Assembly (NCBI GenBank): GCA_017553625.1
Contig: JAFZKP010000013.1
Coordinates: 374 to 64,373, forward strand
Direction: 5' to 3'
Source: Bacteroidales bacterium
GTDB lineage: Bacteria; Bacteroidota; Bacteroidia; Bacteroidales; F082
Length of the DNA stretch: 64,000 bases
The position numbers and the translations under genes were made by a program. Below the pieces are notes generated by a model that was not told where the DNA came from, ran no database searches, and saw only the letters and a list, made by a program, of their open reading frames with translations. This document shows, piece after piece, positions 32,714 to 53,679 of this stretch. Within the stretch, counting starts at the first letter, position 1, and each line of letters starts with the position of its first letter.

Positions 32714-33248
32714 ACTGACGCGATTCTCATTCTTCTGTCGCCCAATCATCAATACAAAGCCTTCTTATAAATACACTTTGCATGATGCATATAATTATAT
32801 AACAGGTGATGATGCCAAGCTAACCACAGCCACGCTTCGCCAGATAACCGATGCCCAGCAAGCTCGCGACTTCAAGGCCGCCAATTTCGACTACTGCACG
32901 TTCAGTGGTGTCTTTAACAAAAGAAGCGACAAAGAATTGAAGCAACACTCAGGCCTCCTCTGCCTCGATTTCGACCACCTGAAGAACCTCGAAGAGGTTC
33001 GCCAACAGCTGCTTAATGATGATTATTTCGAAACTCAGCTTTTATTTGTCTCTCCCTCTGGCAATGGTCTGAAGTGGATAATCGAAATCGACCTCTCGCA
33101 AACTACCCATGCTGACTATTTCCGAGCTGTAGCTAATTATCTCAAACAGACCTACAATGTCGATGTCGACAAATCCGGCAAAGATATCTCCCGAGCTTGT
33201 TTTCTTCCTTATGACCCCGATTGTTACATCAATCCTAAAAATCTCTAA
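32694..33248 (+). CDS. BT4734-like / VirE N-terminal (primase-like) domain protein
   Basis: Has 'KPSYKYTLHDAYNYI...FDYCTFSGVF..R....L..HSGLLCLDFDHL...LLFVSPSGNGLKWI'. The start is set at the ATG at 32694 (MEKLSS); the track start is 32667. Confidence 0.7.
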   Translation: MEKLSSKLTRFSFFCRPIINTKPSYKYTLHDAYNYITGDDAKLTTATLRQITDAQQARDFKAANFDYCTFSGVFNKRSDKELKQHSGLLCLDFDHLKNLEEVRQQLLNDDYFETQLLFVSPSGNGLKWIIEIDLSQTTHADYFRAVANYLKQTYNVDVDKSGKDISRACFLPYDPDCYINPKNL

Positions 33249-33250
33249 TT

Positions 33251-35023
33251 ATGAAGAAAAATTTCAACCCTTCAGAATGGTTAAATAAAAAAGGAGGCTC
33301 GTCAGAGCCTCCAATCACTGTCCCCGAGTGTTCCAATCACACTTTAGAAGATGAAATAGAAGCGTTAACTTCAGCTGTCGAATCCTCATGCACCGATATC
33401 GCTCCCGACTACACCTCTTAGCGTGATCTCGGCTTCGCCCTCGCCGACGCTCTTGGCGAATATGGCCGTTCCTACTTCCATCGTCTATCTCGTTTCTATC
33501 CTGGCTACGATGAGCGTGAAACCGACAAACAGTTCTCTGCCTGTCTTAACTCACACGGCTCAGGCATTACCATTAACACGCTATTTCATCTTGCCAAAGA
33601 AGCAGGTATCCTGATGATTCGTAATACATATTCCCCAGTTTCCCCAATTTCCCCAGTTTCCCCACATGGGGAAACTGGGGAAACGGAGGAATTTGAGGAA
33701 ACCGACTTATCCGAGCCTATGCCAACTTTCTCTCAGGAGATTTACAGCTTCCTTCCTGGTCTTCTTTACGATATCATCCGCAAAGCAAACAACAACGAAG
33801 ATGCAGATCTGCTAATCCTCGGTTCTATGACAGCTATATCAGCTTGTCTTCCCAACATCTCCGGCAACTATGCTGAGCGTGAAGTCTATCCCAATCTGTT
33901 TTTGTTCGTTTCTGCACAAGCTTCAGCTGGCAAAGGTCGCCTAACCCTATGCCGTCATCTTATCAAACCGATACATGACAATCTCAAAAAACTTTACTCT
34001 ATGGAAATGGAAGAATACCGCCGTTTGCAAAACGAATATGTCCAGGACAAGAAAAACCGTGAAGCACCTGCCGAACCGCCGATAAAAACGCTCCTCATTC
34101 CTGCAAATAGTTCAGCCACATCCGTCTATCAGATGCTGAACGACAACTTGGGCATCGGTTTGATTTTTGAAACTGAAGGCGACACATTGGCCAACACTTT
34201 CAAGTCCGACTACGGCAACTTCTCCGATGGCTTCCGTAAAGCTTTCCATCACGAAATGATATCCTACACCAGGCGTAAGGACCGCGAATTCGTAGAGCTT
34301 ACTAAACCACGTCTTTCGGCTCTTCTTTCTGGCACACCTCATCAGATACTTACGCTCATCCCCGACACATAGAACGGACTTTTTAGTCGGTTCATCTTTT
34401 ACATCATGAATCTCCGTCTTGAATGGAGAAACGTGTTCTCCGAAAGCACCGACACTCTTGATGAATACTTCGAAAACTTGGGGTACCGTTTTTTCGAGTT
34501 TTATCAAACTCTTCAAAACTCTCATCCTATCAGATTTTCACTGTCCGCTTGTCAACAAGACGAATTCAACAAATTCTTTGCCAAAGTTCAGGAAGAATAC
34601 TCGTCTATGTTTGGTCTTGATATAGTCGCATCTGTGCGCCGTTTCGGTCTCATAACCTTTCGTCTTGCCATGATTCTAACCACACTTCGATTTATGGACG
34701 GTCAAACAGCTGCGCCTGTTGTTGTCTGCAACGACACCGACTTCCAAACCTCGCTCAGCATGGCTCGTGTGCTTCTGCAGCACACCGCTAAAGTCTTCGG
34801 CAAACTTCCGGCTACTGAAATCACTTCTCAGAGAGCTTCACAAAACACCATGATTCGTCAGCTGTTCTTCGACCGTTTACCACCCGATTTCGACCGCCCG
34901 ACATATATTGCCATTGCAAAGCAGCTCAATATCCCTATCAAAACCGCCGAAAAACAAATCGCCCGCCTTTGCGAAAAAGGCTTGCTCAAACACGTTTCTC
35001 AAGGCATCTATAGCAAACCGTAA
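33251..35023 (+). pseudogene. PriCT-2 + DUF3987 (helicase-like) replication gene interrupted by two in-frame TAG codons
   Basis: One continuous frame runs from the ATG at 33251 to the TAA at 35021-35023. The only stops in it are TAG at 33419-33421 ('APDYTS*RDLGFALADALGE', a position normally W in PriCT-2) and TAG at 34370-34372 ('LIPDT*NGLFSRFIFY'). Track ORFs 33614..34372 and 34406..35023 are fragments of this frame. Confidence 0.75.
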
Positions 35024-35084
35024 GTTGAAATAATTTTTAAACACCATTCGATTTTTTGAAATAATTAGTAATTTTGCAGACGAT

Positions 35085-36548
35085 ATGAACGAGAAAAACA
35101 TAAAAGACACACTGCTGAAAGGAGAACGCGTTACACTTGAAGCAAAACGTGCAAAAACAGAGGTTCCTAAATCTGTTTGGGAATCCTATTCCGCTTTTGC
35201 AAACACTATCGGCGGACTTATTTTGCTTGGCGTTGATGAAGACCGAAAAGAAAAAGACCCGGCAAAAAGGTTTCATATTATCGGAGTCGATGATGCCCAG
35301 AAGATAGTCACCGACTTTTGGAATACCATCAACAGCGATAAGGTTAACGAAAACATCCTTACCGATAACGACGTTAATATTGTTACTATCGACGGCGTTC
35401 AAATTGTCTTCATCCATGTTCCGCAAGCCGATTGGCGCATTAAGCCAATCTTCCTGAATGGCAATGTGTATAAAGGTACATATCGACGCAATCATGAGGG
35501 CGACTATCATTGTTCCGAACGACAGGTAAAAGCCATGATACGCGACTCTATCGAAGATGGCAACGACGGCATCCTGATTGAACACTACGACATGAACGAC
35601 ATCGACCTCGACACACTGCACCGCTACCGTACATTGTTTCAGTATCGCAACGAAGGTCACGTGTGGAATGAAGTTGATGATAAAACATTCCTTCGTAATT
35701 TGGGAGGATATGCTGTCGATAGGGAAGCTGGTAAAGAAGGCCTGACAATGGCAGGTCTGATGATGTTTGGCAAAGGGCTTTCCGTACGTGAGCGTTTCGA
35801 TAACTTTCGCATGGACTATCTCGATTTTTGCAACCTTATTGGCGAGGAGCGTTATAGCGACCGTCTCACTTATGATGGACGCTGGGAAAACAATCTTTAT
35901 CAGTTCTTCAGCCGTGTGTTGCCTAAAATGACTGCCGACCTGCCTCGTCCGTTCCGAATGGAAGGTGTGCAGCGCGTTGATGACACTCCTCAGCACAAAG
36001 CTGTGCGTGAGGCATTCACCAATGCAATAATACACGCCGATTTTATTATGGAATCAGGAATTTTGCGCATCGAAAAACACAACGACAAACTTGTATTCCG
36101 CAATCCTGGGTTGCTTAAACTGCCTATAGAGCAAGTTTACCAAGGTGGCGTTTCGTTTGCGCGTAATCCTAAAATTCAGAATATGCTTCGTATGGTTGGC
36201 TATGGCGAAAACATAGGTTCTGGTTTTCCGTTGATTCTCAATGCTTGGAAACAGACCGACTGGGGCGAACCTGAGCTGAAAAACAAAATCGACCTCGACG
36301 AAATGGAACTGGTGTTGCCGGTGCCAAACGTCACAGAAACTACCCAGAAAACTACCCAGAAAACTACCCAGAAAATTCTGGAACTCATACAGCAAAATGC
36401 TTATATCACCAGAAAAGAGTTGGCTGAAAAATGTGGAGTGTCGTCCGATGGTATCAAATGGCAGCTGCGTCAGATGCAAAACAAAAACATCATTCGCCGC
36501 ATCGGTCCCGACAAAGGTGGTTATTGGGAGTTAGTTCCGCAAAACTAA
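35085..36548 (+). CDS. AlbA_2/Schlafen-like putative DNA-binding domain + HATPase_c_4-like + wHTH protein
   Basis: 487 aa. Has 'GERVTLEAKRAKTEVPKSVWESYSAFANTIGG.ILLGVDE', 'REAFTNAIIHADF' and a C-terminal 'ITRKELAEKCGVSSDGIKWQLRQMQNKNIIRRIG' wHTH. Confidence 0.8.
   Translation: MNEKNIKDTLLKGERVTLEAKRAKTEVPKSVWESYSAFANTIGGLILLGVDEDRKEKDPAKRFHIIGVDDAQKIVTDFWNTINSDKVNENILTDNDVNIVTIDGVQIVFIHVPQADWRIKPIFLNGNVYKGTYRRNHEGDYHCSERQVKAMIRDSIEDGNDGILIEHYDMNDIDLDTLHRYRTLFQYRNEGHVWNEVDDKTFLRNLGGYAVDREAGKEGLTMAGLMMFGKGLSVRERFDNFRMDYLDFCNLIGEERYSDRLTYDGRWENNLYQFFSRVLPKMTADLPRPFRMEGVQRVDDTPQHKAVREAFTNAIIHADFIMESGILRIEKHNDKLVFRNPGLLKLPIEQVYQGGVSFARNPKIQNMLRMVGYGENIGSGFPLILNAWKQTDWGEPELKNKIDLDEMELVLPVPNVTETTQKTTQKTTQKILELIQQNAYITRKELAEKCGVSSDGIKWQLRQMQNKNIIRRIGPDKGGYWELVPQN
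36339..36374 (+). repeat. In-frame 12-nt tandem repeat x3 (ACTACCCAGAAA = TTQK)
   Basis: Three perfect copies in the linker before the wHTH of the 35085..36548 gene. Confidence 0.9.
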
Positions 36549-36556
36549 AATAATAT

Positions 36557-36586
36557 AAATGCCTGGTTCGAGAACCAGGCATTTTT
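36557..36586. terminator. Bidirectional terminator hairpin between convergent genes
   Basis: 'aaatgcctggtt-cgag-aaccaggcattttt' has a perfect 12-bp stem with A/T runs on both sides. Confidence 0.7.
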
Positions 36587-37977
36587 CAATTCCCATAATT
36601 CCTACGATTCCTACACGTAGCAATCTTCATTTTTTTCCCATTTACTTTTGCCCAATGCCTTAAGTAACACAGGACCTCCACATGTTTCTCATATTTATCA
36701 CTTGAATAGCTACTACATTCTTCAAAAAGCTCTTCATAGTTATATGGAATATTATCACCTGTTAGGCTATCATCTATGGTCTGACCCATATGTGCGAATG
36801 CTAAAGTGTAATATTCCAAGGCTTTAATACGGTTTACGGATGTACCGACACCATATAAAAAACAATCACCTAATGCCCATTGTGCATTTCCCCAATCATA
36901 TTCTGCAGCTATAGTGAAACACTTTACTGCATGTTCATAGTTTTGTGGGACATCGTGCCCTGCGCTATCTTTTCCATCCACATAATCATATCCCATTTCT
37001 GTTAAGGAAGCTAAGATATCATAAGAAAAATCTCCTGTCCATCCATCGTGATTCAATGCTCTGCGATACCATTTCATGGCTAACAGGTAATTAATCCTAA
37101 CTCCATACAACCCAAGGGAATAACAATCACCCAATTCCGACTGCGCAACTGGTTCATCATTAAATGCTGCCTCTGTATATAATTCCACACCACGCTTAAA
37201 GTCTTGTTTAACACCAATTCCTTGAACATAGCATCGCCCCAAAGCAGTCTTTGCGCAAATAATGCCCTGCTCGACAACCTTTGAATACAAATTAAATGCC
37301 TTTTTCCCATTTTTTTTCACTCCTAACCCATAATCAAACATTGTCCCCAACCCAAATTGCGCCGCAATATTTCCTTGTTTCGCTCGTCTAAAGATATAAT
37401 TAATAGCTTCTTTGCACTTGTAGTTTCTTGAAAATTCGATTTCCCATGCAACTTCTTGATACCAACTACATGCCTCCTCATTGTTTTGTGGAACGCATTT
37501 TCCTTTGAGAAAACAGTTCCCCAATTTACACATTGCTAACAAATCCTTATTCTCTACTGCCTTTTTCAACCATTCAATCATCATGCTATCATTATCATTA
37601 GTAATAGGCATGTCCAACACTCTGTATATATACATCATAGTAATTGTTCGCATAGCTTTATCATGACCACTCATCGCAGCTTTTGTATAATACACAAAAG
37701 CTTTACCCAAATCAGGTTGAACACCCATACCTTTTGCGTAACATTCGCCCAAATGATACCATCCGTCATGTTTTCCCTCATTTGCATCTCTGTTATATAA
37801 TTCCAGTTGTTTTTTCACCACTTCTGCATTGCAATATGAAGGAGTAAATCCATAATGTTTGTACAGAATGGTTAATCCATCCAATACCTTATCATCGCCG
37901 AATTTATCTGCGATATCATCCATCAATTCTTCGAAGCTCAGATCTTTGAAATCACTGTTTGTCCTATTAGTTTCCAT
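36586..37977 (-). CDS. Sel1-like (SLR/TPR) repeat protein
   Basis: 463 aa with multiple 'G.C(Y/F)..G.GV..D..KA...Y..AA' repeats, for example 'LGECYAKGMGVQPDLGKAFVYYTKAA'. Confidence 0.85.
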   Translation of the reverse strand: METNRTNSDFKDLSFEELMDDIADKFGDDKVLDGLTILYKHYGFTPSYCNAEVVKKQLELYNRDANEGKHDGWYHLGECYAKGMGVQPDLGKAFVYYTKAAMSGHDKAMRTITMMYIYRVLDMPITNDNDSMMIEWLKKAVENKDLLAMCKLGNCFLKGKCVPQNNEEACSWYQEVAWEIEFSRNYKCKEAINYIFRRAKQGNIAAQFGLGTMFDYGLGVKKNGKKAFNLYSKVVEQGIICAKTALGRCYVQGIGVKQDFKRGVELYTEAAFNDEPVAQSELGDCYSLGLYGVRINYLLAMKWYRRALNHDGWTGDFSYDILASLTEMGYDYVDGKDSAGHDVPQNYEHAVKCFTIAAEYDWGNAQWALGDCFLYGVGTSVNRIKALEYYTLAFAHMGQTIDDSLTGDNIPYNYEELFEECSSYSSDKYEKHVEVLCYLRHWAKVNGKKMKIATCRNRRNYGN

Positions 37978-38031
37978 AGTGTAAGTGTTTTATTGTTAAT
38001 ACTAATTAGTAAGCATCACATGTTCAGCTAC

Positions 38032-38039
38032 AAAATTAG
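38032..38039 (-). promoter_or_regulatory. Bacteroidetes -7 promoter box (TAATTTTG)
   Basis: Plus 'caaaatta', about 55 nt upstream of the ATG at 37977. Confidence 0.35.
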
Positions 38040-38199
38040 TAAAGCAAAAAGGCAAATACTACATAGTACTAATATAGTATTATAATAAAAAGAGAATGTA
38101 AATTTACATCAAACTCCTAAAGCTAAATAATGTACACTAGTGACTTAAAGCTACTCCAGCACTCCGATGTAAATAGCCTGGAAATCGTAAAGGATATAG

Positions 38200-38766
38200 T
38201 TATCTAGAACTTAGGTATTCTTTGGTTTTAACTTTGACATCATCAATTGCTTCATCAATTGAAACAGGTCTGTTGTCATGTGCATCCAACGATACATTAT
38301 ACATATATGGCAATCCATTATAAAACTTCTCTTTTGAGTGAGTGTGCCCAAAGAAATTAACAGTCCACTCCTTAGGTTTCTTTTCTGTTTCCAAATCGAC
38401 AGTAATTGACGGAAAATGGCTTAGATAATACTCACGGCCTTTATATCGAATTAACTTAGCATATAAAACCTCGATAATGCTTCTTTCATTTTTATATAAA
38501 TCAATTCGAGCATCTGTGTCATGATTGCCAAGAATGATGTGTTTTTTACCTTTCAATCGACGAATAATGGTCATGCCCTCTTCGTTGTTATGTTCTTTTC
38601 CGCCGACCATCAAATCGCCTAGGATGTAAACATCATCATCGTCATTTACTATTTCATTCCAGTTTTTTTCGATAGCGGCATTCATGTCTTCTGCACTTTG
38701 AAATCCTCGTGGTTCATATATAAAGAATCTGTGATATAGGTGTAAATCTGACGTAAGATATATCAT
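38200..38766 (-). CDS. Calcineurin-like metallophosphoesterase
   Basis: 188 aa with 'IYLTSDLHLYH', 'ILGDL', 'LGNHD' and 'FGHTH'. Confidence 0.8.
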   Translation of the reverse strand: MIYLTSDLHLYHRFFIYEPRGFQSAEDMNAAIEKNWNEIVNDDDDVYILGDLMVGGKEHNNEEGMTIIRRLKGKKHIILGNHDTDARIDLYKNERSIIEVLYAKLIRYKGREYYLSHFPSITVDLETEKKPKEWTVNFFGHTHSKEKFYNGLPYMYNVSLDAHDNRPVSIDEAIDDVKVKTKEYLSSR

Positions 38767-39048
38767 GCTTTGAGAGTTTTATAATCTGCAGCAAAGATAT
38801 GAATTTTTAATCAAAAAATAATAGAGTAACATTAAATATTATGAATGTGCTAGTTTTCATCAAATCTAGACAGTTATAAATCATTCATTAAGAGAAGTAC
38901 TATAATAATCCCATATAGTGTAGTGTTGATTTTTGCAATATATTTGCATTCGACAAATAATGATTAAACACACGCTTAGAAAACACATGGTATTATTTGA
39001 CATCAAAAATATGATATTCCGATAATTGTGTTTATAGTAGTTTTTTAT

Positions 39049-39056
39049 TATTTTTG
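39049..39056 (+). promoter_or_regulatory. Bacteroidetes -7 promoter box (TATTTTTG)
   Basis: TAnnTTTG match about 30 nt upstream of the ATG at 39086. A second match (TATATTTG) lies near 38.94 kb. Confidence 0.45.
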
Positions 39057-39085
39057 CAATTATTAATTAATAAGACATCATCTAT

Positions 39086-40957
39086 ATGGAAGATAGAATA
39101 ATCGTATGTTGGAACAAAAATGGATTTGAAGAGGAGTTAAAGAAAAACCCATCATTCATTGTTTGCACAAGTTTCAATGAGTTTAAGAATCTGAACAAAA
39201 TGTTACTTAAGAATACCATTGGTTTTGTCGTTTTGTGTGAATTGACCTGGGATGATGAAAAAGATAATCTTACATTGTTAGAGTTTGGAGGTATTACGTT
39301 TGTCCAACGTTATGTTCGAGGTAAAATGAGTTTAAAAGCACCGGTTGTTTTTACTTCAATTAATGAGCGTGACTATATTATTAGCAAACGACGTGATGCA
39401 ACAATAATAAAAACGCCCGCACTGCAACATGGATTTGTGAAGTTTAATCCTACAACAATCCGTAAAGATTTGGTGCGCACATTACAAAACATGCAATATC
39501 TGACAAATGCAGAGCTCGCTTATACAAAACTATTATATTGTGATATCAAAGGATTATTGGTGCAAATCAGCCATGAATTAGGCAGTAGAGCAAAAAACGA
39601 GCAAGATAAATATCGAAAAGACATTGAATATGTTATCAAAGAACAATTTAATAATGACAGTGGCTTGATAGAATACCTCCATAATACTGATGATTTGGGT
39701 GACTTTTGCAAGAAGCTTATAACAAGGCTAGAATCTTCGGAAAACTTACCAGAATACGGTGGTTTCCTTAATGATATTCGTCATAAAACAATAAGAATAT
39801 TGTTGGTTGATGACAAACAAGAAGAGGATGAATATGTTGGCAATTTCGTTAATTACATCAAAAATATGGGACAAAAGAACAAAAACCCTATGTTTAAAAT
39901 AACTGTAATTAACAATATAGATATTGTCGACTATGACTCAATAATAGATTATGATGTGATTATTTGTGATATTGAAATAAGAAATGACAAAGATGAGCTT
40001 ATAACACTTGGTTTTAACATAATTGAAAAAATGGCTAAAATAAGCAAGCGTCCTTTGTATTATATTGTAACAAATGTGTCTCGAAGTCTTTATGACCAAA
40101 TAAAAACTCCATATGTTAAACGAATTCGTCTTAAAAAAGAGGTTTTTGGCACAAAACAAAGTATAGAGACATTTTTGTATGGCATCAAAGAAGTGTTTGA
40201 TAGTAAATCGGAAGATACTGCAGGAAATGATAGCATAGGTGAAGCGGCATTTAAAAAATTTGATGCATTTATCAGAACAGATATATATCCTATTAATATA
40301 AGTTTTAAATCGTATTTAAGGAGCGTTGAGTCCTATGATGATCTTGCCAGTATTATTGTTAAAGATAAAACATTAGAACTAATTAAATATTTTCTAACAA
40401 TTTTTAGTGAAAATGATTTTAAACAAGGAATCGGAGAATATGAAAAATTTAAAATATTTGATGATAATTGTAAAAGAATGCGAGATTATATAAAAGATAA
40501 TTTTGGATATGGCAACGGTAAAAGTATTATCAAACGCATAAACGACAACGAAGAATTATCATCTAAAGATGTGAGTAATTTTGTGGTAAAAATAATTTTG
40601 AGGAGGTTTTTTTTATATGTAAAATCATTCGTTGAACATTATGACATAATGGAGTCTTTTAAGGCTTATAAAAACTCCGATATAGAAATAGCAGAGATCA
40701 ACAAAGATAGAAGTTTAACTGTTAAAGACATTGCCTGTAGGGCTATCAGCGACCAATTCAAAAAGTTGTTAACTTCAAAAGGAGCGCATAGATCTCAAGA
40801 GGACATGTCTCATTGTTTGGGTGAAACATTGCTAATAAAGGCTGAGCGAGAGCCTATGTTAATGAATGATGAAGAAAAGATTTTTATTAGTATTATAAAA
40901 GGAAATGAGAGTTTTTATTCAACAAATAAAAAGATTATACAAGGATTAAAGATGTAG
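39086..40957 (+). CDS. Hypothetical protein with receiver (CheY)-like segments and an unknown ~250-aa C-terminal region
   Basis: 623 aa. The central segment 'IRILLVDDKQEE...YDVIICDIEI...LYYIVTNVS' keeps the receiver-like acidic pair, Asp and Thr. The N-terminal 'RIIVCWNKNG...FVVLCELTWDD...APVVFTS' shows a similar beta-alpha pattern. No family recognised for the rest. Confidence 0.65.
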   Translation: MEDRIIVCWNKNGFEEELKKNPSFIVCTSFNEFKNLNKMLLKNTIGFVVLCELTWDDEKDNLTLLEFGGITFVQRYVRGKMSLKAPVVFTSINERDYIISKRRDATIIKTPALQHGFVKFNPTTIRKDLVRTLQNMQYLTNAELAYTKLLYCDIKGLLVQISHELGSRAKNEQDKYRKDIEYVIKEQFNNDSGLIEYLHNTDDLGDFCKKLITRLESSENLPEYGGFLNDIRHKTIRILLVDDKQEEDEYVGNFVNYIKNMGQKNKNPMFKITVINNIDIVDYDSIIDYDVIICDIEIRNDKDELITLGFNIIEKMAKISKRPLYYIVTNVSRSLYDQIKTPYVKRIRLKKEVFGTKQSIETFLYGIKEVFDSKSEDTAGNDSIGEAAFKKFDAFIRTDIYPINISFKSYLRSVESYDDLASIIVKDKTLELIKYFLTIFSENDFKQGIGEYEKFKIFDDNCKRMRDYIKDNFGYGNGKSIIKRINDNEELSSKDVSNFVVKIILRRFFLYVKSFVEHYDIMESFKAYKNSDIEIAEINKDRSLTVKDIACRAISDQFKKLLTSKGAHRSQEDMSHCLGETLLIKAEREPMLMNDEEKIFISIIKGNESFYSTNKKIIQGLKM

Positions 40958-41003
40958 ATTTGATACTATATAGTTACTATAATAAACATATGGAAAATGG
41001 CCG

Positions 41004-41011
41004 CTATATTT
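41004..41011 (+). promoter_or_regulatory. Bacteroidetes -7 promoter box (TATATTTG)
   Basis: Exact match about 56 nt upstream of the ATG at 41067. Confidence 0.45.
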
Positions 41012-41066
41012 GCATTGTTGGTTTAAGATCCAAGTATAGATGTAAAATTTAATAATAAATAGTGTT

Positions 41067-44000
41067 ATGACAAACAAAAACAATATGGATTATTTAGTAG
41101 AAGACATAAGAAACGATGAAAAATCGTGCGCTGATTTTAGAGTAACATACAAAACGAGGTATAGCTTGTTGTTTGCACTTGACGAGAGCACAAATGAATT
41201 ATCCTTGATTGACGACATTGAAAATGTCAATGGAGAAAATGTCGTCATTAAAATACCAGCTAAAGTGCTGGATTATCCAGTTACAGGAATTGTCCGATTT
41301 TATGAATGCAGCTATTCCGAACAAATTCAAAAGCTAATCATTCCGGATTCAACTGTTAATATTGGAGAAGATGTATTTGCTTCATGTCCTGTAAAAAGTG
41401 TAGTAATTCCTGAATCTGTAACCAGTATTGGCGAAAATGCTTTTTCAGAGTGTTATTATTTAAAAAATGTCTTTATTCCTGCCTCTGTTATAAGAATCGG
41501 AACCGGAGCTTTTTCAGGATGCTCTAGATTGTCATCTATTAAAGTTGACAACAATAATATCTATTACGACTCTCGTAATAATTGTAATGCTATTATTAAA
41601 ACACAAGAGAATGTGCTTGTTGTTGGAAGTAAAAAAACAATTATTCCAGAAAACATTAATGAAATAGGTTATTCAGCATTTTCCCACATTCACTTAACAA
41701 AGATAGTTATTCCGGACTCCGTAAAGTTTATTGGTGACTATGCATTTTATGAATGTGGATATTTAAAAGAATTGTTCATTCCCAAATCCGTTAAACATAT
41801 AGGAGAAAAAGCTTTCGCTGGTTGCTCAAAGCTTCAGTCAATAGTAGTTGACAAGACCAATATGTTTTATGATTCTCGTTGTAATTGTAATGCTATTATT
41901 AAAAAAGATAGTGATACATTGATAACAGGATGCAAGAATACAATAATTCCAGACACCATTAAAGAGATTGGTGAATATGCATTTTATTTTTTATCATTGT
42001 CAAGTCTGGATATTCCGAAATCTGTTGTCAAGATTGGTGAAAGCGCTTTTAATATGTGTGATGGATTTGAGAGAGTTATCATACCTGATTCTGTCAAAAG
42101 CATTGATAGTCATGCTTTTGACAGTTGCTCTGTTGAAGAGGTTTTTCTTCCAAACAGTATTACCGAAATTGCGGATTCAGCATTTTCTTATAGTGAATTA
42201 AGAAAAATAATTATACCAAATTCTGTTATTAAAATTGCCGATTATGCGTTTTATGGTTGTCACTTTTTGACAGAAGTCGTTATTCCAAATACCCTTACTA
42301 AAATAGGCAAATTGGCGTTTGGATGCTGTCCTAGTGTACAAAACTTATATATTCCAGAATCTGTTGTAGATATTGACGATCTTGCATTTTCTGGATGTTC
42401 TAGGTTGTTAACCATTAATATTGACGAAGGCAACAGAATGTATGATTCGCGTAATAATTGTAATGCAATCATAGAAAGCGCTAAAAATAGGCTTATTCAG
42501 GGTTGTATACACACAAGCGTTCCAGATTCTATTGAAATAATCGGCAATAATGCTTTTTCATTTGTACACATTAGATCTATTAATATACCAAATTCAGTTT
42601 CTGTAATCGAAGATGAGGCTTTTTATCATTGTTGGAAACTTGAAAAGTTGGTGCTTTCGAAACATACGAAAAAAATAGGCAACTTCGTTTTTTGCGGATG
42701 TTCTGCTTTATCAGATATTATCGTGCCAGATTCTGTAGTTGAAATCGGTGAAGGGGTATTTGCAGAATGTGATAATCTACAAAAAATAGTTATAGCCGAG
42801 CCAGCAGCTTTAAATAATGCGTATGTTCCAAAGCATACAAAAATAGAAAACAAGCAGCCTTCATTATTTGACGACAGTTCTGTTGATGTCTCAAACCAAA
42901 ATGCGGCAAGAATAGATAAAATATTATATAAACAAGCAGTATTACAAAAAAGAATAGATCAACTAACTCTTCAAATAATTAATGAAGATACAAAGAGGAG
43001 TCAACGTTCAATTTTTTATGACGCAGCATGGAGATTGTTAATAAGTACCAATGAGCAAAACCCTGAAGATGATGAAAAAAAACATTTGCTGGATGATGCG
43101 TTGTTTGAAATAATTAATTGTATTGATCTGGATAATCCAGACAATAATCCTGGTATAATAGTATTTGATGTACTTAAACGCAAATACTTTGATTTTTATG
43201 ATTTACAATTCATCAAATTTATCAACATATTTAACAATACTGGCAAGGAACAATTAGGTCATATCAGTTATTTTGCTGATTTTACACACAGTGCAAGTGG
43301 AGAAAACCTAATAAGGAAAGGTAAGGAGTTTATTACTAATAATTCTCATAAGGTTGATTTTAACAATGAGTATAACATTGTTGATGTTTCAATGTCAATA
43401 AAGGATTTGTTGAACGATTCAATATATTCTACTGCCTGCTTTGAATATAGCAAACAATCTAAGCCACCTGTTTTTTCTAATGGATACTATGCGTACAAAC
43501 TAGGATCCCTAAGCAAAAATTATGGTTATTCTAAGGGTATTACAGATTTGATATGTGAAAAAGAAGAGGATTCGTCCAAAGAAAATATATTCAATCACTG
43601 TTTAGATATCATTGATAATGGTTATAGTAATAGTTTTACAAACTATTTTCTTCTTTGGGGAAACTTGGCAAAAAAACACACGAATAAAAATGCCGAAATA
43701 GATAGGTTTTGTGTTTGTGCAAATGTTGGAATTGACATTAATAAAGGTAAAAAAGAAGACATAATCGCTTTTTTAATAAATTTTCAAAGATTTATTGACA
43801 AGCTTTCTTTTTGCCTTATTTTTGAAATCAAAAATCACCAACTTCATCAATCCGCAGCTATCGCTTCTGTCTCACAAGCTTTGACACGCAACATGAGTCA
43901 TAATATTAGGTCACACGTGTCAAGCAACTACACTTCGAATAAAGCTTACGAGATACTAAAAGACGATTATATAAAACAAAATCTGAACAATTACATATCT

Positions 44001-45860
44001 TCTGAAGAAGATAAAGTCGTATTTCCTTGTGGGGAAAATCTCCAGTTGCCATATTTTATTCAGTATCTGAATAACCGTATGGACTATTTAAGCGAAATGA
44101 CCTTTGATGTTCCTTCTATAATGACAACAAAACGTTTTTACGCAAACATTTTTAAAGAATTAGATCGAGGGCGCATCTTGCTAAACCATATTCCTGGCAT
44201 ATCGGGATTCAGGTATGAATTTTCACTAATATACAATGGTAAAACCATGTCCGATCAAAACGATTTATCAGTGTATCTGCCAGATGTACTTGGAAATCAA
44301 GCAGTGTTTAATATTTTAGAAAACATCATTAGAAACACAGCCAAGCATTCGACAAGACACAATGATGATAAAATTGTTTTCAATATTGAAGTTGTTGAGG
44401 ATGCAAATTTCCCGGAATACTATTGTGTTGAGATTGATAATGGGATAAATGTAGATGACATTACAGAATTAGTGTGTAAACAGAACAAAATACTAAATGA
44501 TTCCGTATTGGGTGACGACGAAAAGCTTCGTACATACGGATTGGGGTTGCTCGAGATGGCTGTGGCTGCTGCTTTTCTCCGCCAGGTCGATATTGTAAAA
44601 GTGGATTCATATGAATACCGTTTTGAGAACACGGACGAATATACCAATAAATATGGCAATCTCATACTTCTTAAAGCCATAAATAAAAATGGTGCTTTAG
44701 GCTATCGGTTCTTCCTAAAAAAACCGATGGAGTTTCTGTTTTTAGGAGCTTTCGATGTCCTAGATTCACTAAAAACTGTTTTGGCTAAAGATGGCATCAA
44801 TTTTATCAGCGAAGAAGCTTTTGCCAAGGCTATGGACAAAAACGAATCATTTTTTCATTCGTTTATGTTTTATCCAAATACTGTGTCAGAAAAGACAAAA
44901 ACACTATTATCGGATGAATGCGATTGTAAAACCTTGCTGCCAGTACGAAAAATCAAATTAAATAAGGCAGAGATTCAGGAAATCAGCAAAAAAATTTTTA
45001 ATGGCGGCAATGACGTTCTTTTGCAATTAAAGGATACGGCTTGGAATAAGTATTTTTCTGCGACAATAGTAAAAGAACTGAAAAATCCTAATAATGCAAC
45101 ATTAGAAATACTCACATCTTTTGATTCAGAAAAAGACGAACAAACTGGAACTGCGAGTAATCAGGTTGTATTTCTGGATCATGGATTTAAAAAAATACAA
45201 GAAATTGCATGGGAACAGGCAAATAACGACAGCTCTTATGAAGCATGGATTGAAAACCTTTCAAGCCGAACAAGTGCAAAGCTTCCTGAGTTTGCTAGTT
45301 TGTCTATTGGGACAAAAGACAAAATCTGCAATTATGTGAATAATATTAGTAATTTGAACCGTATCAAAATAGAATTGTTTGAAGCGTACCACAACAAGGT
45401 CATTGTTTTGGACGAACGTATTCAAAGATTCTTAAAAGGTAGTTTCGAAGGCTCCTCGAACGAATATGGCGGTCCTATTCCTTGCCAAGAGCTTTTCAGA
45501 TCAACCAATGTACACATTCCCGAGACACCTCTTGATCCCAACACATTTGATAATATGGATAAAATGGAATTAGAGCGTTTTGTTAACGAAAATATACATG
45601 AAGCGTTCTTATTGATACACTATGGCATTTTAGAGCGTTTCTATCATGGCGAAAGAACAAAAATGGAAGAAGTATTAAATGAGTGGTCAAAGAAAGCGAA
45701 ACGTGTAGTGGTGACCAGCGGTCGCGGATCTCATTCATTGCCTCTACCTCCATCAGTGTGTTTCATTAATCTTTCTTCTGTTTTATATGCCTTTACGGAG
45801 AACAGAAACAAATTTATAATCAATTATTTACTCAATCAATCTAGAAGAAAAAATGGATAA
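41067..45860 (+). CDS. Giant cytoplasmic protein: BspA-type leucine-rich repeats + histidine-kinase-like (GHKL) ATPase module + degenerate receiver-like C-terminus
   Basis: 1597 aa with no signal peptide or TM run. About 500 aa are LRR_5-type repeats ('IPDSVK.IG..AF..C..L..I.IP.SV..IG..AF'). Then come 'RNMSHNIRSH' (H-box-like), 'NILENIIRNTAKHS' (N-box), 'VEIDNGINV' (G1-like), 'YGLGLLEMA' (G2-like), and the C-terminal 'VIVLDERIQ...FLLIHYGILE...VVVTSGRG'. Confidence 0.7.
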   Translation: MTNKNNMDYLVEDIRNDEKSCADFRVTYKTRYSLLFALDESTNELSLIDDIENVNGENVVIKIPAKVLDYPVTGIVRFYECSYSEQIQKLIIPDSTVNIGEDVFASCPVKSVVIPESVTSIGENAFSECYYLKNVFIPASVIRIGTGAFSGCSRLSSIKVDNNNIYYDSRNNCNAIIKTQENVLVVGSKKTIIPENINEIGYSAFSHIHLTKIVIPDSVKFIGDYAFYECGYLKELFIPKSVKHIGEKAFAGCSKLQSIVVDKTNMFYDSRCNCNAIIKKDSDTLITGCKNTIIPDTIKEIGEYAFYFLSLSSLDIPKSVVKIGESAFNMCDGFERVIIPDSVKSIDSHAFDSCSVEEVFLPNSITEIADSAFSYSELRKIIIPNSVIKIADYAFYGCHFLTEVVIPNTLTKIGKLAFGCCPSVQNLYIPESVVDIDDLAFSGCSRLLTINIDEGNRMYDSRNNCNAIIESAKNRLIQGCIHTSVPDSIEIIGNNAFSFVHIRSINIPNSVSVIEDEAFYHCWKLEKLVLSKHTKKIGNFVFCGCSALSDIIVPDSVVEIGEGVFAECDNLQKIVIAEPAALNNAYVPKHTKIENKQPSLFDDSSVDVSNQNAARIDKILYKQAVLQKRIDQLTLQIINEDTKRSQRSIFYDAAWRLLISTNEQNPEDDEKKHLLDDALFEIINCIDLDNPDNNPGIIVFDVLKRKYFDFYDLQFIKFINIFNNTGKEQLGHISYFADFTHSASGENLIRKGKEFITNNSHKVDFNNEYNIVDVSMSIKDLLNDSIYSTACFEYSKQSKPPVFSNGYYAYKLGSLSKNYGYSKGITDLICEKEEDSSKENIFNHCLDIIDNGYSNSFTNYFLLWGNLAKKHTNKNAEIDRFCVCANVGIDINKGKKEDIIAFLINFQRFIDKLSFCLIFEIKNHQLHQSAAIASVSQALTRNMSHNIRSHVSSNYTSNKAYEILKDDYIKQNLNNYISSEEDKVVFPCGENLQLPYFIQYLNNRMDYLSEMTFDVPSIMTTKRFYANIFKELDRGRILLNHIPGISGFRYEFSLIYNGKTMSDQNDLSVYLPDVLGNQAVFNILENIIRNTAKHSTRHNDDKIVFNIEVVEDANFPEYYCVEIDNGINVDDITELVCKQNKILNDSVLGDDEKLRTYGLGLLEMAVAAAFLRQVDIVKVDSYEYRFENTDEYTNKYGNLILLKAINKNGALGYRFFLKKPMEFLFLGAFDVLDSLKTVLAKDGINFISEEAFAKAMDKNESFFHSFMFYPNTVSEKTKTLLSDECDCKTLLPVRKIKLNKAEIQEISKKIFNGGNDVLLQLKDTAWNKYFSATIVKELKNPNNATLEILTSFDSEKDEQTGTASNQVVFLDHGFKKIQEIAWEQANNDSSYEAWIENLSSRTSAKLPEFASLSIGTKDKICNYVNNISNLNRIKIELFEAYHNKVIVLDERIQRFLKGSFEGSSNEYGGPIPCQELFRSTNVHIPETPLDPNTFDNMDKMELERFVNENIHEAFLLIHYGILERFYHGERTKMEEVLNEWSKKAKRVVVTSGRGSHSLPLPPSVCFINLSSVLYAFTENRNKFIINYLLNQSRRKNG

Positions 45861-46512
45861 AGTGCTGATATTTACCAACGAAAATAGTTGGAATAACATT
45901 TCTAAAAAAATCAGGGATAAAGTTAATTGGGATACATATCCCAATAACAACAGCCCGATAATGCAATGTGTTGTTAACCATAACAATAAAGTTGATTTGT
46001 ACTCCAAACCTGATTTTAATGAAGCAGGAATATATCTTGTCTATGATAAAATCAATATGGCTCAACTTTCGCAACTGTTAGACAAATGCAAAAATGATTC
46101 TTTATATATCCTGTTGCATTCATATAAAGAAGGAAGACGCAGACATGAAGATTTTACGCCTTGGGAAAGATACTGCCATATTGAACGTGGTTTGCATGAT
46201 AATGATGATAGTTTCAAGTATAAGCCGACGTTTAAAATTATTGCAGATTCCGAAGGAAATAAGATAGAGCGTATTATTAAAGATATTTTTTCACCATTAG
46301 AAGAAGCTGTCATAGAATTGCTGCATATCTGTACGGTTCCAAAAAAGAAAATTGAAGAAACAGATGCTTATCGAACGCTTATTCAAAATGAAGAATATAG
46401 AAACCTTCTAGAAAAGTTTAAAATAAAGTACGATTCATGTAACAATTTTGACGAATATAAGGATGTATGGGAAAAATTACGAAAAGATATTGTCCCCTTC
46501 CCTGAAAATTAA
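45853..46512 (+). CDS. Small hypothetical protein, translationally coupled to the giant gene (flavodoxin/receiver-like beta-alpha pattern)
   Basis: 219 aa. Its ATG overlaps the upstream stop (ATGGATAA, 8-nt overlap). The N-terminus 'KVLIFTNENSW' resembles 'RIIVCWNKNGF' of the 39086 gene. Confidence 0.65.
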   Translation: MDKVLIFTNENSWNNISKKIRDKVNWDTYPNNNSPIMQCVVNHNNKVDLYSKPDFNEAGIYLVYDKINMAQLSQLLDKCKNDSLYILLHSYKEGRRRHEDFTPWERYCHIERGLHDNDDSFKYKPTFKIIADSEGNKIERIIKDIFSPLEEAVIELLHICTVPKKKIEETDAYRTLIQNEEYRNLLEKFKIKYDSCNNFDEYKDVWEKLRKDIVPFPEN

Positions 46513-46707
46513 GTAAACTCATGAACTTAGACTGTTAATAATGAGAGTGAAAACTAAACTATGTCCGGCTACAAAACAACGTAGAAGTTTAATTTACGCT
46601 CTCAACTTTATTAAATCTTGTGTCCTACAAGATGGTTTGCGTCAATAGTCAAAATTCTTCTTTTCTTTGGCTTAAACGCATATCCGATTTTCAGGGAAGG
46701 GAACAAT
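46489..46707. repeat. 21-bp inverted repeat pair (20/21 identical) flanking a 177-bp spacer
   Basis: IR-L is attgtccccttccctgaaaat (46489..46509) and covers the last codons of the 219-aa gene. IR-R (46687..46707) reverse-complements to attgttcccttccctgaaaat. Confidence 0.85.
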
Positions 46708-46791
46708 CGAAGGTATAGGATTTGTTATGCCGGAAAAGATATGAGATCTTTTTGCCTTGTTTGATGAGATGGGAAATTAAGTACATTGTTT

Positions 46792-47493
46792 TTATTCTTT
46801 TCGTATAATCCTTGCGTACAAATGCATTTGATGTTCATGAAAAAAACCTGTTTCTATAGTAAATACTGACTCATCAATGGAGTTGGAAAGAAATAGCTTC
46901 CAACTGTCAATACTCCAGAAATGTATATGTTGTTCATATGTATCGAGTTTTCCGTTAGGAACAGTGATAATAGCGACACCATTTCTGTTTAATGCATCGA
47001 GAATATTTTTAACGGCAATTTGGGGATATAAAAGATGTTCTATTGTCTCTATGCAATAAACAACATCAAATTTTCCATCTATAGGATCGTAAATATCATG
47101 AACGGAGCATAGCAGATCGGGAATCATTAGACTTTTAGTCACGTTAACGCATGATTCAGAAAAGTCACAAGCACAAAACGGATTAGGTTTGTATAATGCG
47201 CTTATTTCTTCACACAATACGCCTGTGCCGCATGACACATCAAGTACTCCTTTCCCCGATATATCTATACCCGTTAGTCTAATTATTGATTTGTAAAATG
47301 GCACCTTTCTTTTAAATCCATAATACGTGTTCCTATTCACAGCTTTATTGATTGATTCCTTGCTATTACGATTAATAGCGGAAAAACCTCTGTCTTTCTT
47401 CTTAATAAAAATAATTTGATATCCAAACATATCCAGCTTATGTCTTGAATACAGTATTCTCCTAAACATATTCTTTTTTTTGTGCGATTTCAA
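46792..47493 (-). CDS. Class I SAM-dependent methyltransferase
   Basis: 233 aa with the 'VLDVSCGTGVL' motif I. An alternative start at M9 (47469) would reduce the overlap with the upstream gene. Confidence 0.8.
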   Translation of the reverse strand: MKSHKKKNMFRRILYSRHKLDMFGYQIIFIKKKDRGFSAINRNSKESINKAVNRNTYYGFKRKVPFYKSIIRLTGIDISGKGVLDVSCGTGVLCEEISALYKPNPFCACDFSESCVNVTKSLMIPDLLCSVHDIYDPIDGKFDVVYCIETIEHLLYPQIAVKNILDALNRNGVAIITVPNGKLDTYEQHIHFWSIDSWKLFLSNSIDESVFTIETGFFHEHQMHLYARIIRKE

Positions 47494-48232
47494 GATTAAC
47501 TAATACACGAAGGTCGATTATCCCTTCATAAGATTTTAATAAATTGTATATTTCTGTGTTTATTTGTTTATCTAAGTAACAATGTCCAATAAATGTTTCT
47601 AGCAAAGCAAGAAAATCATTAGAACTAACAGTGATAATGTTTTCAATCTCTTTATGCTCAACCAATGTGAATTCAGAGCTTTCTTCTATGTCTTTTCTTC
47701 TCTTTTCAATTTTCAGAAGTTGCTTTTGATAATTGCATTCAAATTGTTCATTATAGTGTTTATATATATTTGAGATTTCATTGTTTATTTCGCTATCAAA
47801 CACGCTATAATTGTTCCAATACAAAACCAAATAGCCTTTTTCATTTAATAAATCAGATGCTTTTTTATATTTAATTGACTTATCTATCCAATGAAAAGCT
47901 GTTGCTGAAATAATTCCATCATATTTGTTGCTTGAATAAAAACTCTCAAAGTTACAGCCAATAATCTTTATATTTTTAGTGGCAAACTTATGTTTCAACA
48001 ATGAAACAAAGTGATCACCTGGTTCAACGACTGTCAAATCAGGATGCCACTTTCTATATATTTCATTCGTTGCTATTCCACTCCCAGCTCCTATTTCAAG
48101 TATTTTTGAATTTGAATTAAACCCGCATATGGATGATATTATTTGATATACATCATCAACATAACCAAGTCTTGCAGACTGATATGTTTCATAATATTCA
48201 TTAAAATACCATTTCTGTTTTTCGTCTTTCAT
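47462..48232 (-). CDS. Class I SAM-dependent methyltransferase
   Basis: 256 aa with the 'ILEIGAGSGIAT' motif I. Confidence 0.8.
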   Translation of the reverse strand: MKDEKQKWYFNEYYETYQSARLGYVDDVYQIISSICGFNSNSKILEIGAGSGIATNEIYRKWHPDLTVVEPGDHFVSLLKHKFATKNIKIIGCNFESFYSSNKYDGIISATAFHWIDKSIKYKKASDLLNEKGYLVLYWNNYSVFDSEINNEISNIYKHYNEQFECNYQKQLLKIEKRRKDIEESSEFTLVEHKEIENIITVSSNDFLALLETFIGHCYLDKQINTEIYNLLKSYEGIIDLRVLVNLEIAQKKEYV

Positions 48233-53175: not shown

Positions 53176-53679
53176 TTAATTATCAATCTTTTGATCAAAT
53201 TCAGACAGGTCATCATCATCTGATTCTGAAGTGCCCTTGTCAATAATCGACTCTTCGAATTGTTTTTTGTCAAGTACTACTGGGTAGCCGGTGGCATTTG
53301 TGGCGTTAAAGACAATGGAATTGATGTCGTTGTATTTGCTCTTTGGAATCGTATCATTTAATATTTTATGAATACTTTCACTGTCAAGAGATTCATCAGT
53401 TATGTTGACAAAGACCACATAGACAAACATAAGGTCATGAGCTTTGAGTCCGCAATCTATTGCTGTTGAAATATTGACTTTGATTTCAATCATATAATAG
53501 AGATCCTTGCTTATCCTTGCTGAAAGCACCTCTGTATTTATAATGACCGCAAAAGTTTTTTCAGTCGGATATAGTATTAATTCGGGAGTACCCGGACATT
53601 CTATATGAAGTTGCCCAAGAAATGTTCTCGTAATTGTAAATGGAAAATCTTCATAAGGATTATTTGTTACTGTGTCCAT
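53176..53679 (-). CDS. Hypothetical protein, possibly SecB-like chaperone fold with acidic tail
   Basis: 167 aa. The overall pattern (N-terminal beta region, 'IPKSKYNDINSIVFNATNATGYPVVL', acidic C-terminus 'SESDDDDLSEFD') resembles SecB. This is by eye only. Confidence 0.5.
   Translation of the reverse strand: MDTVTNNPYEDFPFTITRTFLGQLHIECPGTPELILYPTEKTFAVIINTEVLSARISKDLYYMIEIKVNISTAIDCGLKAHDLMFVYVVFVNITDESLDSESIHKILNDTIPKSKYNDINSIVFNATNATGYPVVLDKKQFEESIIDKGTSESDDDDLSEFDQKIDN

Follow-up and report, generated by a model that had tools for sequence, protein, structure and literature searches.

Leaderless BspA-type leucine-rich repeats fused to a predicted, highly divergent histidine kinase in a Bacteroidales bacterium

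Within a 64,000-nucleotide stretch of a Bacteroidales genome (GenBank assembly GCA_017553625.1, contig JAFZKP010000013.1, positions 374 to 64,373; hereafter the window), a single open reading frame (ORF) at 41067-45860 on the forward strand encodes a protein of 1597 amino acids (aa) that begins with a long array of BspA-type leucine-rich repeats (LRRs). We observe that this array carries no export signal and that the rest of the protein is, according to its predicted structure and conserved motifs, a very divergent and unannotated histidine kinase with PAS-like, DHp, and CA domains. The gene lies between one for a 623-aa response regulator (RR)-like protein and one for a 219-aa protein, p219. 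We consider it likely that the product is a soluble cytoplasmic histidine kinase with an LRR input, controlling His-Asp phosphotransfer to the neighboring double-receiver protein. Since a divergent histidine kinase adjoins an Asp-receiver protein, the trio is best read as a two-component-type module and not as a generic ATPase or STAND receptor.

A diverged LRR_5 array without export signals

The LRR array consists of genuine, diverged repeats and is neither low-complexity sequence nor a chance match. Pfam family LRR_5 (PF13306) matches the protein in five stretches with 339.7 bits (cutoff, 27.7; E = 8.1e-103), and the LRR adhesin models of NCBIfam match below threshold only. Regular-expression parsing resolves 18 units of 22 to 23 aa with the form IPxSVxxIGxxAFxxCxxLxxV between aa 63 and ~590; three of the 18 are long (56 aa) and hold YDSR(N/C)NCNAI modules of 33 to 34 aa at aa 167, 268, and 459. 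At the DNA level, 11 repeat copies share just 60 to 71% identity, so the array is old. These results bear out the initial annotation, which had recognized about 500 residues of LRR_5-type repeats at 41247-42840 and quoted from them a peptide that corresponds to aa 215-256. It had also singled out YDSRNNCNAII insert modules. Three are indeed present, but they are not special: an NC[NS]A[IVL][IVL] module occurs in 99 of 120 general LRR_5 relatives (the 120 best matches of residues 1-600), signal-peptide-bearing ones included, and the modules are therefore a normal trait of this LRR_5 subtype.

By every test applied (hydropathy, start codon, and Pfam/NCBIfam searches), the array reads as cytoplasmic. 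A miscalled start hiding an upstream leader is ruled out, because an in-frame TAA at 41043-41045 lies seven codons 5' of the ATG at 41067 and no ATG, GTG, or TTG stands between them. The first 40 aa are acidic and hydrophilic, and the top 19-aa Kyte-Doolittle window of the whole protein scores 1.61, belongs to an LRR strand, and includes two Asp residues. Neither Pfam nor NCBIfam gives a match to Por_Secre_tail, Big, fn3, or dockerin domains anywhere in the protein, and the last 253 aa match no type IX secretion system (T9SS) C-terminal domain (CTD) or other C-terminal family, even at E ≤ 10. The earlier claim that the 1597 residues hold no signal peptide, transmembrane run, or T9SS tail thus stands.

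The leaderless state is a conserved trait of the LRR-kinase fusions. A simple hydropathy heuristic on N-termini, applied alike to both sets of relatives, finds a hydrophobic N-terminus in none of the 26 LRR-fused orthologues checked (max KD10, 1.47) versus a hydrophobic leader in 81 of the 120 general LRR_5 relatives. The fused orthologues instead have a common hydrophilic cap motif, EDLRG..A.ADF+LT, whose segment in the window protein, ADFRVTY, resembles the HDFEVDGIYY found after the leader in secreted LRR_5 relatives.

The predominance of leaders among LRR_5 proteins, several of which also carry dockerin, Big_2, or Por_Secre_tail domains, could suggest a surface or secreted BspA-like adhesin that is exported nonclassically, e.g., via the SecB-like or AAA+ proteins of relatives, with the C-terminal 1000 aa as passenger or anchor. 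SecB-like genes do accompany the module in seven loci, and a SecB-like ORF lies in the window at 53176-53679. However, the lack of a leader, transmembrane segment, or CTD extends to the fused orthologues, while the predicted kinase fold with its invariant motifs and the receiver partner would both need cytoplasmic ATP. LRR_5 arrays are, moreover, also fused to plainly intracellular enzymes, namely, Pkinase (P0319 and P0398) and RNase_T with Sel1 (P0400). We regard the secreted-adhesin explanation as essentially excluded.

A predicted divergent histidine kinase behind the repeats

Residues 601-1597 have no match in Pfam, NCBIfam, PADLOC, or PDB sequences, apart from HATPase_c on the kinase segment, the sole match when nine separate segments were scanned against Pfam at E ≤ 10 (E = 0.07, 14 bits versus a cutoff of 26.4). 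The non-LRR 997 aa and their family profile likewise yielded nothing meaningful against PDB sequences. An AlphaFold2 model of the C-terminal region, built on 37 homologues, reached a predicted local distance difference test score (pLDDT) of 85 and a predicted template modeling score of 0.80, and its best PDB structural matches by Foldseek are all histidine kinases. YF1-type LOV-histidine kinase chimeras (8a52 and 4gcz) align at E = 2e-5 to 1e-4 over ~350 to 440 columns spanning LOV, DHp, and CA, and the full-length hybrid kinase ShkA (6qrj) aligns over 643 columns; further matches are HprS, CusS, AgrC, EL346, ThkA, MprB, and ETR1. Of the ten viral models in BFVD matched at E ≤ 0.001, nine are phaeovirus proteins or carry a histidine kinase annotation.

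The motifs expected of such an enzyme were judged in one alignment of 37 close kinase members and, independently, in another of 38 distant ones. Both show an invariant H-box, R941-N942-x-x-H945-N946-x-x-x-H950, and an invariant N-box, E1085-N1086-x-x-R1089-N1090-T-x-K1093-H1094, in which the Thr is T1091. The G1 box reads IDNG (1123-1126) and the G2 box GLGLLEM (1158-1164); the G2 glycine G1160 is invariant and the G1 glycine G1126 nearly so, whereas D1124 is not. Ahead of this core, the predicted PAS/LOV-like module (aa 716-890) has no sequence-level match (Pfam, E ≤ 10), and the helical linker (aa 593-715) corresponds to the N-terminal end of the kinase in loci that encode the LRR separately (L001/L009). 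No P-loop STAND NTPase or Roc-COR module was found beside the LRR in Pfam or structural matches. The fusion to an ATPase proposed in the initial annotation is therefore retained as an N-terminal fusion to a GHKL fold and refined to a predicted divergent histidine kinase with a cognate receiver.

Pyruvate dehydrogenase kinases also appear among the structural matches (E = 0.02 to 0.1). Together with the atypical His-Asn H-box and the enzyme domains that paralogues carry in the N-terminal slot, they raise the prospect of a protein Ser/Thr kinase or nonkinase ATPase (PDK/BCK- or RsbW-like), for which the LRR would be a substrate-recruiting scaffold. We hold this to be highly unlikely: two His residues of the DHp helix, in register with the H-box, are invariant, histidine kinases score far above pyruvate dehydrogenase kinases, and the conserved neighbors include one or two receiver proteins whose Asp pockets are intact.

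Two further domains follow CA. The first (aa 1221-1342) is probably a pseudo-receiver; aligned to a receiver (REC) profile by hhalign, it gives E = 0.017 and 2.7% probability over 89 in-register columns. The second (aa 1343-1597) has no sequence relatives in PDB, Pfam, NCBIfam, or REC profiles (0.2% probability versus REC by hhalign), and member-wise Pfam scans return scattered single matches only. It nevertheless bears conserved polar residues after successive strands, namely, H1372, the invariant D1449-E1450 with R1451, H1518-Y-G, and T1550-S-G-R-G. At the end of the β3-equivalent strand, where the acceptor Asp of a receiver would be expected, this domain has the invariant H1518. With REC probabilities this low for both domains and only an overall resemblance to ShkA, the notion of a bona fide hybrid histidine kinase was dropped. 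A P-loop reading of TSGRGSHS, prompted by a weak adenylate-kinase match (E = 0.35), was rejected as well, since a loop and a strand, and no helix, follow the motif in the model. Comparison of the kinase C-terminal domains and p219 with each other by hhalign showed no relationship.

The adjoining double-receiver protein and p219

The 623-aa protein encoded 5' of the kinase gene has no Pfam family at E ≤ 0.01, and its profile finds nothing meaningful among PDB sequences. Its AlphaFold2 model (pLDDT, 81) matches CheY-like receivers, RcsB, PorX, PleD, and NtrC1 in Foldseek, and its first and second α/β domains align to the receiver profile with hhalign probabilities of 80% and 88%, respectively. 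In the N-terminal domain (aa 1-135), a pseudo-receiver, the acceptor position is occupied by C51/E52. The canonical receiver (aa ~233-355) follows, with D243, D295, and K350 invariant and T329 nearly so among 38 homologues; in the model, D295, T329, and K350 lie at or just past the ends of strands β3, β4, and β5. The C-terminal ~265 aa (aa 357-623) form an all-helical orphan domain, and no DNA-binding domain is detectable (Pfam at E ≤ 10; profile versus PDB sequences). On this pattern and the modeled fold, we propose that the neighbor is the cognate Asp-receiver protein of the kinase. It shares 48% identity with the same-position gene of the sister locus L001.

The gene for p219, translationally coupled to that of the kinase, is 50% identical in its product to the same-position gene of L001. 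H89 and Y123 are invariant in the homologue alignment, and D65 and H115 nearly so. The protein has no Pfam or PDB relatives of known function, with scattered single matches in member-wise Pfam scans. A receiver like DtcB of the Detocs system (discussed below) was considered for p219 and dropped, because hhalign shows no relationship to the REC profile; an Hpt-like reading of its LLHxC helix was also dropped, as the His is Ser in L001 and L009.

The features of the trio are collected in Table 1. Its last two rows are matches to the Bacteroidetes-type −7 motif. The copies at 38939 and 41005 lie in a 12-mer, TATATTTGCATT, found identically at 38939-38950 and 41005-41016 (plus strand), 5' of the RR gene and of the kinase gene. 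The shared 12-mer may represent two similar promoters or a shared operator.

Table 1. Coordinates of the trio, its domains, and associated motifs in the window
Feature	Coordinates	Strand	Basis
Hydrophilic N-terminal cap, aa 1-60, in place of a signal peptide	41067..41246	+	Hydropathy, orthologue motif
BspA-type LRR_5 array, 18 units, aa 61-592	41247..42842	+	Pfam, unit parsing, DNA repeat families
Helical linker, aa 593-715	42843..43211	+	DSSP and pLDDT; low-confidence model
Predicted PAS/LOV-like α/β module, aa 716-890	43212..43736	+	Foldseek, 348-443 columns to LOV-DHp-CA chimeras of 364-368 aa (8a52, 4gcz)
Predicted DHp helical hairpin, aa 896-1013, H-box RNMSHNIRSH	43752..44105	+	Model, Foldseek, invariant residues
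Predicted GHKL CA domain, aa 1020-1220	44124..44726	+	Foldseek to ThkA, MprB, CusS, HprS, and AgrC CA domains; motifs
First C-terminal α/β domain, aa 1221-1342, receiver-like (βα)5 topology without acidic pocket	44727..45092	+	DSSP, ShkA match
Second C-terminal domain, Rossmann-like, aa 1343-1597, orphan	45093..45857	+	Model, invariant residues
623-aa response-regulator-like protein, double receiver	39086..40957	+	AlphaFold2 model, Foldseek, hhalign, 38 homologues
219-aa partner protein p219	45853..46512	+	8-nt overlap with kinase stop; conserved linkage
Bacteroidetes-type −7 motif TAnnTTTG, 30 nt 5' of RR start; second copy at 38939	39049..39056	+	Motif match only
TAnnTTTG in the 109-nt RR-kinase spacer	41005..41012	+	Motif match only

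A widespread kinase family with a variable N-terminal slot

An exhaustive profile search recovered 2,916 representative clusters (50% identity) of the kinase family at E ≤ 1e-3 and 1,033 at E ≤ 1e-30, and the 80 loci taken from GTDB species represent Bacteroidota, Acidobacteriota, KSB1, TM6, Elusimicrobia, Hyphomicrobiales, and others. Members without an LRR are carried by cultured strains such as Capnocytophaga granulosa ATCC 51502, Parabacteroides sp. PF5-9, Flavilitoribacter nigricans DSM 23189, and Lutibacter sp. TH_r2. Relatives are named "leucine-rich repeat protein" or "hypothetical protein" by NCBI, and no relatives were found in IMG/VR viral contigs. On contigs of rumen and gut Bacteroidales, the same three genes recur in the same order at 48 to 52% identity. 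Several sister loci (L001/L009) have a separate LRR gene of ~500 aa whose stop overlaps the start of a ~1000-aa kinase gene; with the 502-aa product of the L001 LRR gene, the array studied here shares 37 to 40% identity. This pattern of fission and fusion argues that LRR and kinase work together physically.

Linkage to the partner genes is conserved across the family. Homologues of p219, detected by hidden Markov model, directly adjoin the kinase gene on its 3' side in 43 of 88 loci, across phyla, and an RR-family gene occurs within 9 kb of the kinase in 52 of 84 loci. The commonest order is a set of metabolic genes (ABC importer with binding protein, methyltransferase, aminotransferase, etc.) followed by kinase, p219, c4, and RR. 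The c4 protein, a double-receiver paralogue, has an hhalign probability of 97.5% to the N-terminal half of the RR and a Pfam Response_reg match at E = 1.8e-6; some loci add an NtrC-type regulator.

The N-terminal slot is variable. Among 38 representatives it is occupied by a methyltransferase (6), Lysine_decarbox/SLOG (6), LRR_5 (3), SPASM (2), or TPR (1), and some family members have no N-terminal module. LRR fusions make up 34 of the 120 best kinase-family matches. In the Bacteroidales LRR subfamily, genes for AAA_2 ATPase, SecB-like, and WG-repeat proteins lie upstream and radical S-adenosylmethionine (SAM) genes downstream, all absent from the window as neighbors of the trio.

Several side observations concern these loci. 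The SecB-like ORF of the window (167 aa, minus strand) has no Pfam match and shares 26% identity (E = 1e-12) with the SecB-like domain conserved upstream in sister Bacteroidales loci; it sits 7 kb from the trio, on the opposite strand. Tandem kinase copies were seen in L004 (10001-18041; LRR-fused, then unfused) and L019 (8810-15818; both unfused), each pair sharing one downstream p219 gene. Among distant members (L022, L033, and L040, 3' of the kinase-p219 pair; L010, 18657-21206), several have a tyrosyl-tRNA synthetase paralogue and an 850-aa pyridoxal phosphate-dependent, tyrosine-decarboxylase-like enzyme beside the module, and others have a class-V aminotransferase and three types of ABC importer there. 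Such neighbors hint at an amino-acid-related signal for the wider family.

Proposed mechanism and selection

We propose that the ligand of the LRR is cytoplasmic, most probably a peptide or protein, and that the signal of its binding would pass through the helical linker and the predicted PAS-like module to the DHp/CA core. Autophosphorylation would then occur on H945 of the H-box, which is in register with SHELRTPL, with the likewise invariant H950 as an alternative. Given its canonical pocket and conserved linkage, D295 of the 623-aa protein is the candidate phosphoryl acceptor, and the orphan helical C-terminal domain of that protein would be the output. Both p219 and the orphan C-terminal domain of the kinase, with its DER/HYG/TSGRG crevice, may be conserved accessory parts, possibly modulating or relaying phosphoryl flow.

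All three genes appear to be under constraint. Between the window and a sister strain of 96.8% identity (L088), the one strain pair compared, the ratio of nonsynonymous to synonymous substitution rates (dN/dS) is 0.20 to 0.22 across the kinase domains, 0.21 for the LRR, 0.20 for the RR, and 0.21 for p219; the LRR takes 17 of 58 substitutions. With dN/dS at ~0.2 throughout, the three genes are therefore functional and constrained. The hypervariable LRR surface that had been put forward as a receptor signature is not seen in this pair.

Several points weigh against an LRR-input histidine kinase that phosphorylates the neighboring receiver. HisKA is not detected by Pfam, and as HATPase_c reaches only E = 0.07, the identity of the kinase rests on predicted structure and motifs. 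The H-box has Asn after its His, where Asp or Glu is usual. The LRR shows no excess variability relative to the sister strain, so nothing positively marks a receptor face. Because several other fusions in the N-terminal slot are enzymes (methyltransferase, SLOG, and SPASM), that slot may house not only sensors but also effectors or substrates. Finally, the downstream half of the mechanism is conjecture, since no relatives could be detected for the output domain of the RR, p219, or the last kinase domain. Of the intracellular ligand sensor first suggested for the protein, the cytoplasmic location and an LRR at the position of an input domain are kept, and the sensor role is a proposal drawn from the architecture.

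Local context and possible roles of the module

The trio stands at the start of a low-GC stretch (30 to 35% versus 40 to 50% GC) and is preceded by genes for a tyrosine integrase, a BT4734-like/primase protein, a Schlafen/AlbA_2-HTH protein, a Sel1-repeat protein, and a metallophosphoesterase. The primase-like gene (PriCT_2 and DUF3987; 33251-35023, plus strand) has two in-frame stops, at 33419-33421 and 34370-34372, and is an intact 590-aa ORF in the sister strain; it reflects either a decaying mobile element or sequencing errors. The sister strain is collinear with the window from 33106 to 46761, and collinearity ends ~250 nt past the p219 gene, between 46512 and 46792. Beyond this point, the sister strain has a 574-aa YcaO gene, and the window has methyltransferase genes and low-GC glycosyl/pyruvyl-transferase (polysaccharide) genes on the minus strand. 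When the integrase flank (29.4-30.05 kb) and the strain-variable junction (46.5-47.0 kb) were compared for direct or inverted att-like repeats, only an 11-nt AT-rich match turned up. In the mechanism proposed here, the trio behaves as an autonomous cassette, which in the window lies beside a decaying integrase/primase element in a low-GC island.

Three observations on the flanking genes may be added. The 487-aa Schlafen gene product (35085-36548, plus strand) combines AlbA_2, HATPase_c_4, and winged-helix domains and has a weak PADLOC pAgo-associated match (E = 6e-11). A 332-aa ORF overlapping it on the opposite strand (35037-36035) is probably spurious. On the other side of the trio, two adjoining class-I SAM methyltransferase genes (46792-48232, minus strand) with weak PADLOC "mad2" matches (E ~ 1e-11) head the low-GC cluster with its pyruvyl transferase and GT2 genes.

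The same machine could be a Detocs-like, cell-autonomous defense against phages or mobile elements. In that case, the LRR would recognize an invader protein, the phosphorylated RR would free its helical effector, and p219 would act as a buffer or safety part. The location of the trio in the low-GC island near integrase, decayed primase, and Schlafen genes, its strain-variable right flank, and its three-gene layout with a cytoplasmic repeat-sensor kinase would all fit, as would the swapped N-terminal modules, the tandem kinase duplication in L004 and L019, the AAA+ ATPase and SecB-like chaperone added in sister loci, and the patchy spread across phyla. We nevertheless find a defensive role doubtful. 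PADLOC, in whose version 2.0.0 the presence of Detocs models was unverified, gives no match for the kinase, RR, or p219 (E ≤ 0.01) or for the AAA_2, SecB-like, WG-repeat, and c4 proteins (E ≤ 0.001); p219 is not a receiver by profile comparison; and no known toxic effector domain is present. In addition, the family-wide neighbors (ABC importers, aminotransferases, methyltransferases, and NtrC-type regulators) resemble metabolic regulation, the LRR is not hypervariable in the one strain pair, and IMG/VR is without relatives.

The same machine could also have a housekeeping or biosynthetic role, in which the LRR would sense an imported or endogenous peptide or protein, e.g., the precursor or product of a ribosomally synthesized and posttranslationally modified peptide (RiPP), and the RR would control neighboring biosynthetic or transport genes, akin to the cytoplasmic peptide sensing of RRNPP proteins. 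Two sister LRR loci (L001, 12488-16205; L004, 20824-24892) have an M42 peptidase, two radical-SAM/SPASM enzymes, and ORFs of 34 to 61 aa 3' of the module, a RiPP-like cluster that is absent from the window. The YcaO gene directly 3' of the trio in the sister strain, the three ABC importer types with substrate-binding proteins directly upstream across the family, the fusion of SPASM or methyltransferase domains to some members, and purifying selection throughout also fit. We see this role as possible, if on balance unlikely, because no RiPP genes adjoin the trio in the window, where the downstream methyltransferases and glycosyl/pyruvyl transferases lie on the opposite strand, neighbors outside the trio are not conserved between close strains, and the RR has no detectable DNA-binding domain.

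On a bolder version of the LRR-input kinase, the trio would be a mobile, self-contained cytoplasmic surveillance cassette in which pattern recognition by the LRR sets off a His-Asp phosphorelay, making it a bacterial counterpart to LRR receptor kinases. Such a cassette could provide Detocs-like immunity or sense peptides or foreign proteins, and would bring a new effector (the helical domain of the RR) and new relay chemistry (the kinase C-terminal domain and p219). This is a speculative idea to which we give little credence at present; if true, the family of ~2,900 clusters would be a large overlooked signaling/conflict class with exchangeable N-terminal sensors.

Implications and comparison with known systems

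Neither this kinase family nor any fusion of LRRs to a histidine kinase turned up in literature searches, and a paper on conflict systems (PMC7159879) mentions no such system. If the proposed mechanism is correct, a large histidine kinase family has been missed by annotation (Pfam, NCBIfam, and pipelines), and censuses of two-component systems undercount. BspA-type LRRs, which in Bacteroidales of the gut, mouth, and rumen are usually taken for surface adhesins or virulence-associated proteins, would then also serve as intracellular kinase inputs, and function should not be deduced from an LRR_5 match alone. LRR-kinase coupling in a bacterium would offer a simple, testable system for what bacterial LRRs recognize, and the orphan domains (kinase C-terminus, p219, and RR output) would be candidates for new phosphorelay or effector biochemistry.

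In its predicted workings the module is like a two-component system: it agrees with histidine kinases in structure and motifs and departs from them in sequence profiles and in the comparison with hybrid receivers. With classical and hybrid sensor histidine kinases (YF1/LOV-HK, 4gcz and 8a52; ShkA, 6qrj; HprS; CusS) it has in common the predicted PAS-like, DHp, and CA order, the H-box His with N, G1, and G2 boxes, and the adjoining receiver gene, and with ShkA in particular the α/β domains after CA. Unlike classical kinases, its sequence is beyond the reach of Pfam HisKA and HATPase_c, its H-box reads S-H-N-I-R-S-H, and its input is a cytoplasmic BspA-type LRR in place of a periplasmic, membrane, or PAS sensor. 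Unlike hybrid kinases, it ends in a domain that has H1518 in place of the acceptor Asp and is not a receiver by profile.

The array belongs to the same repeat family as BspA/LRR_5 surface proteins, with the same unit, YxSRxNCNAI-type long units, and N-cap motif. BspA of Tannerella forsythia is reportedly T9SS cargo. In contrast, the array described here has no signal peptide, CTD, or Big, dockerin, or fn3 domain and is, in the window and its relatives, fused to or in an operon with a predicted cytoplasmic kinase.

Detocs (DtcA/DtcB/DtcC) is a three-gene defensive two-component system whose soluble kinase has an N-terminal TPR sensor (bioRxiv 10.1101/2023.01.24.525353). Our trio resembles it as a three-gene cassette with a soluble kinase, N-terminal repeats (TPR there and LRR here), a receiver partner, and swappable modules. 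It differs in that p219 is not a stand-alone receiver, that the RR joins two RECs to a helical orphan domain and lacks a PNP or any other toxic effector of known type, and that the family-wide neighbors are mostly transport and metabolic genes.

In Roco/LRRK proteins, plant LRR receptor kinases, and NLR/STAND proteins, an LRR recognition solenoid is coupled in cis to a nucleotide-dependent signaling enzyme. The enzyme predicted here is of another kind, a GHKL histidine kinase without a P-loop and not a Roc GTPase, eukaryotic-type Ser/Thr kinase, or STAND NTPase, and the LRR is of the LRR_5 subtype. What the window protein would have in common with these systems is the design principle, an LRR and a signaling enzyme joined in cis.

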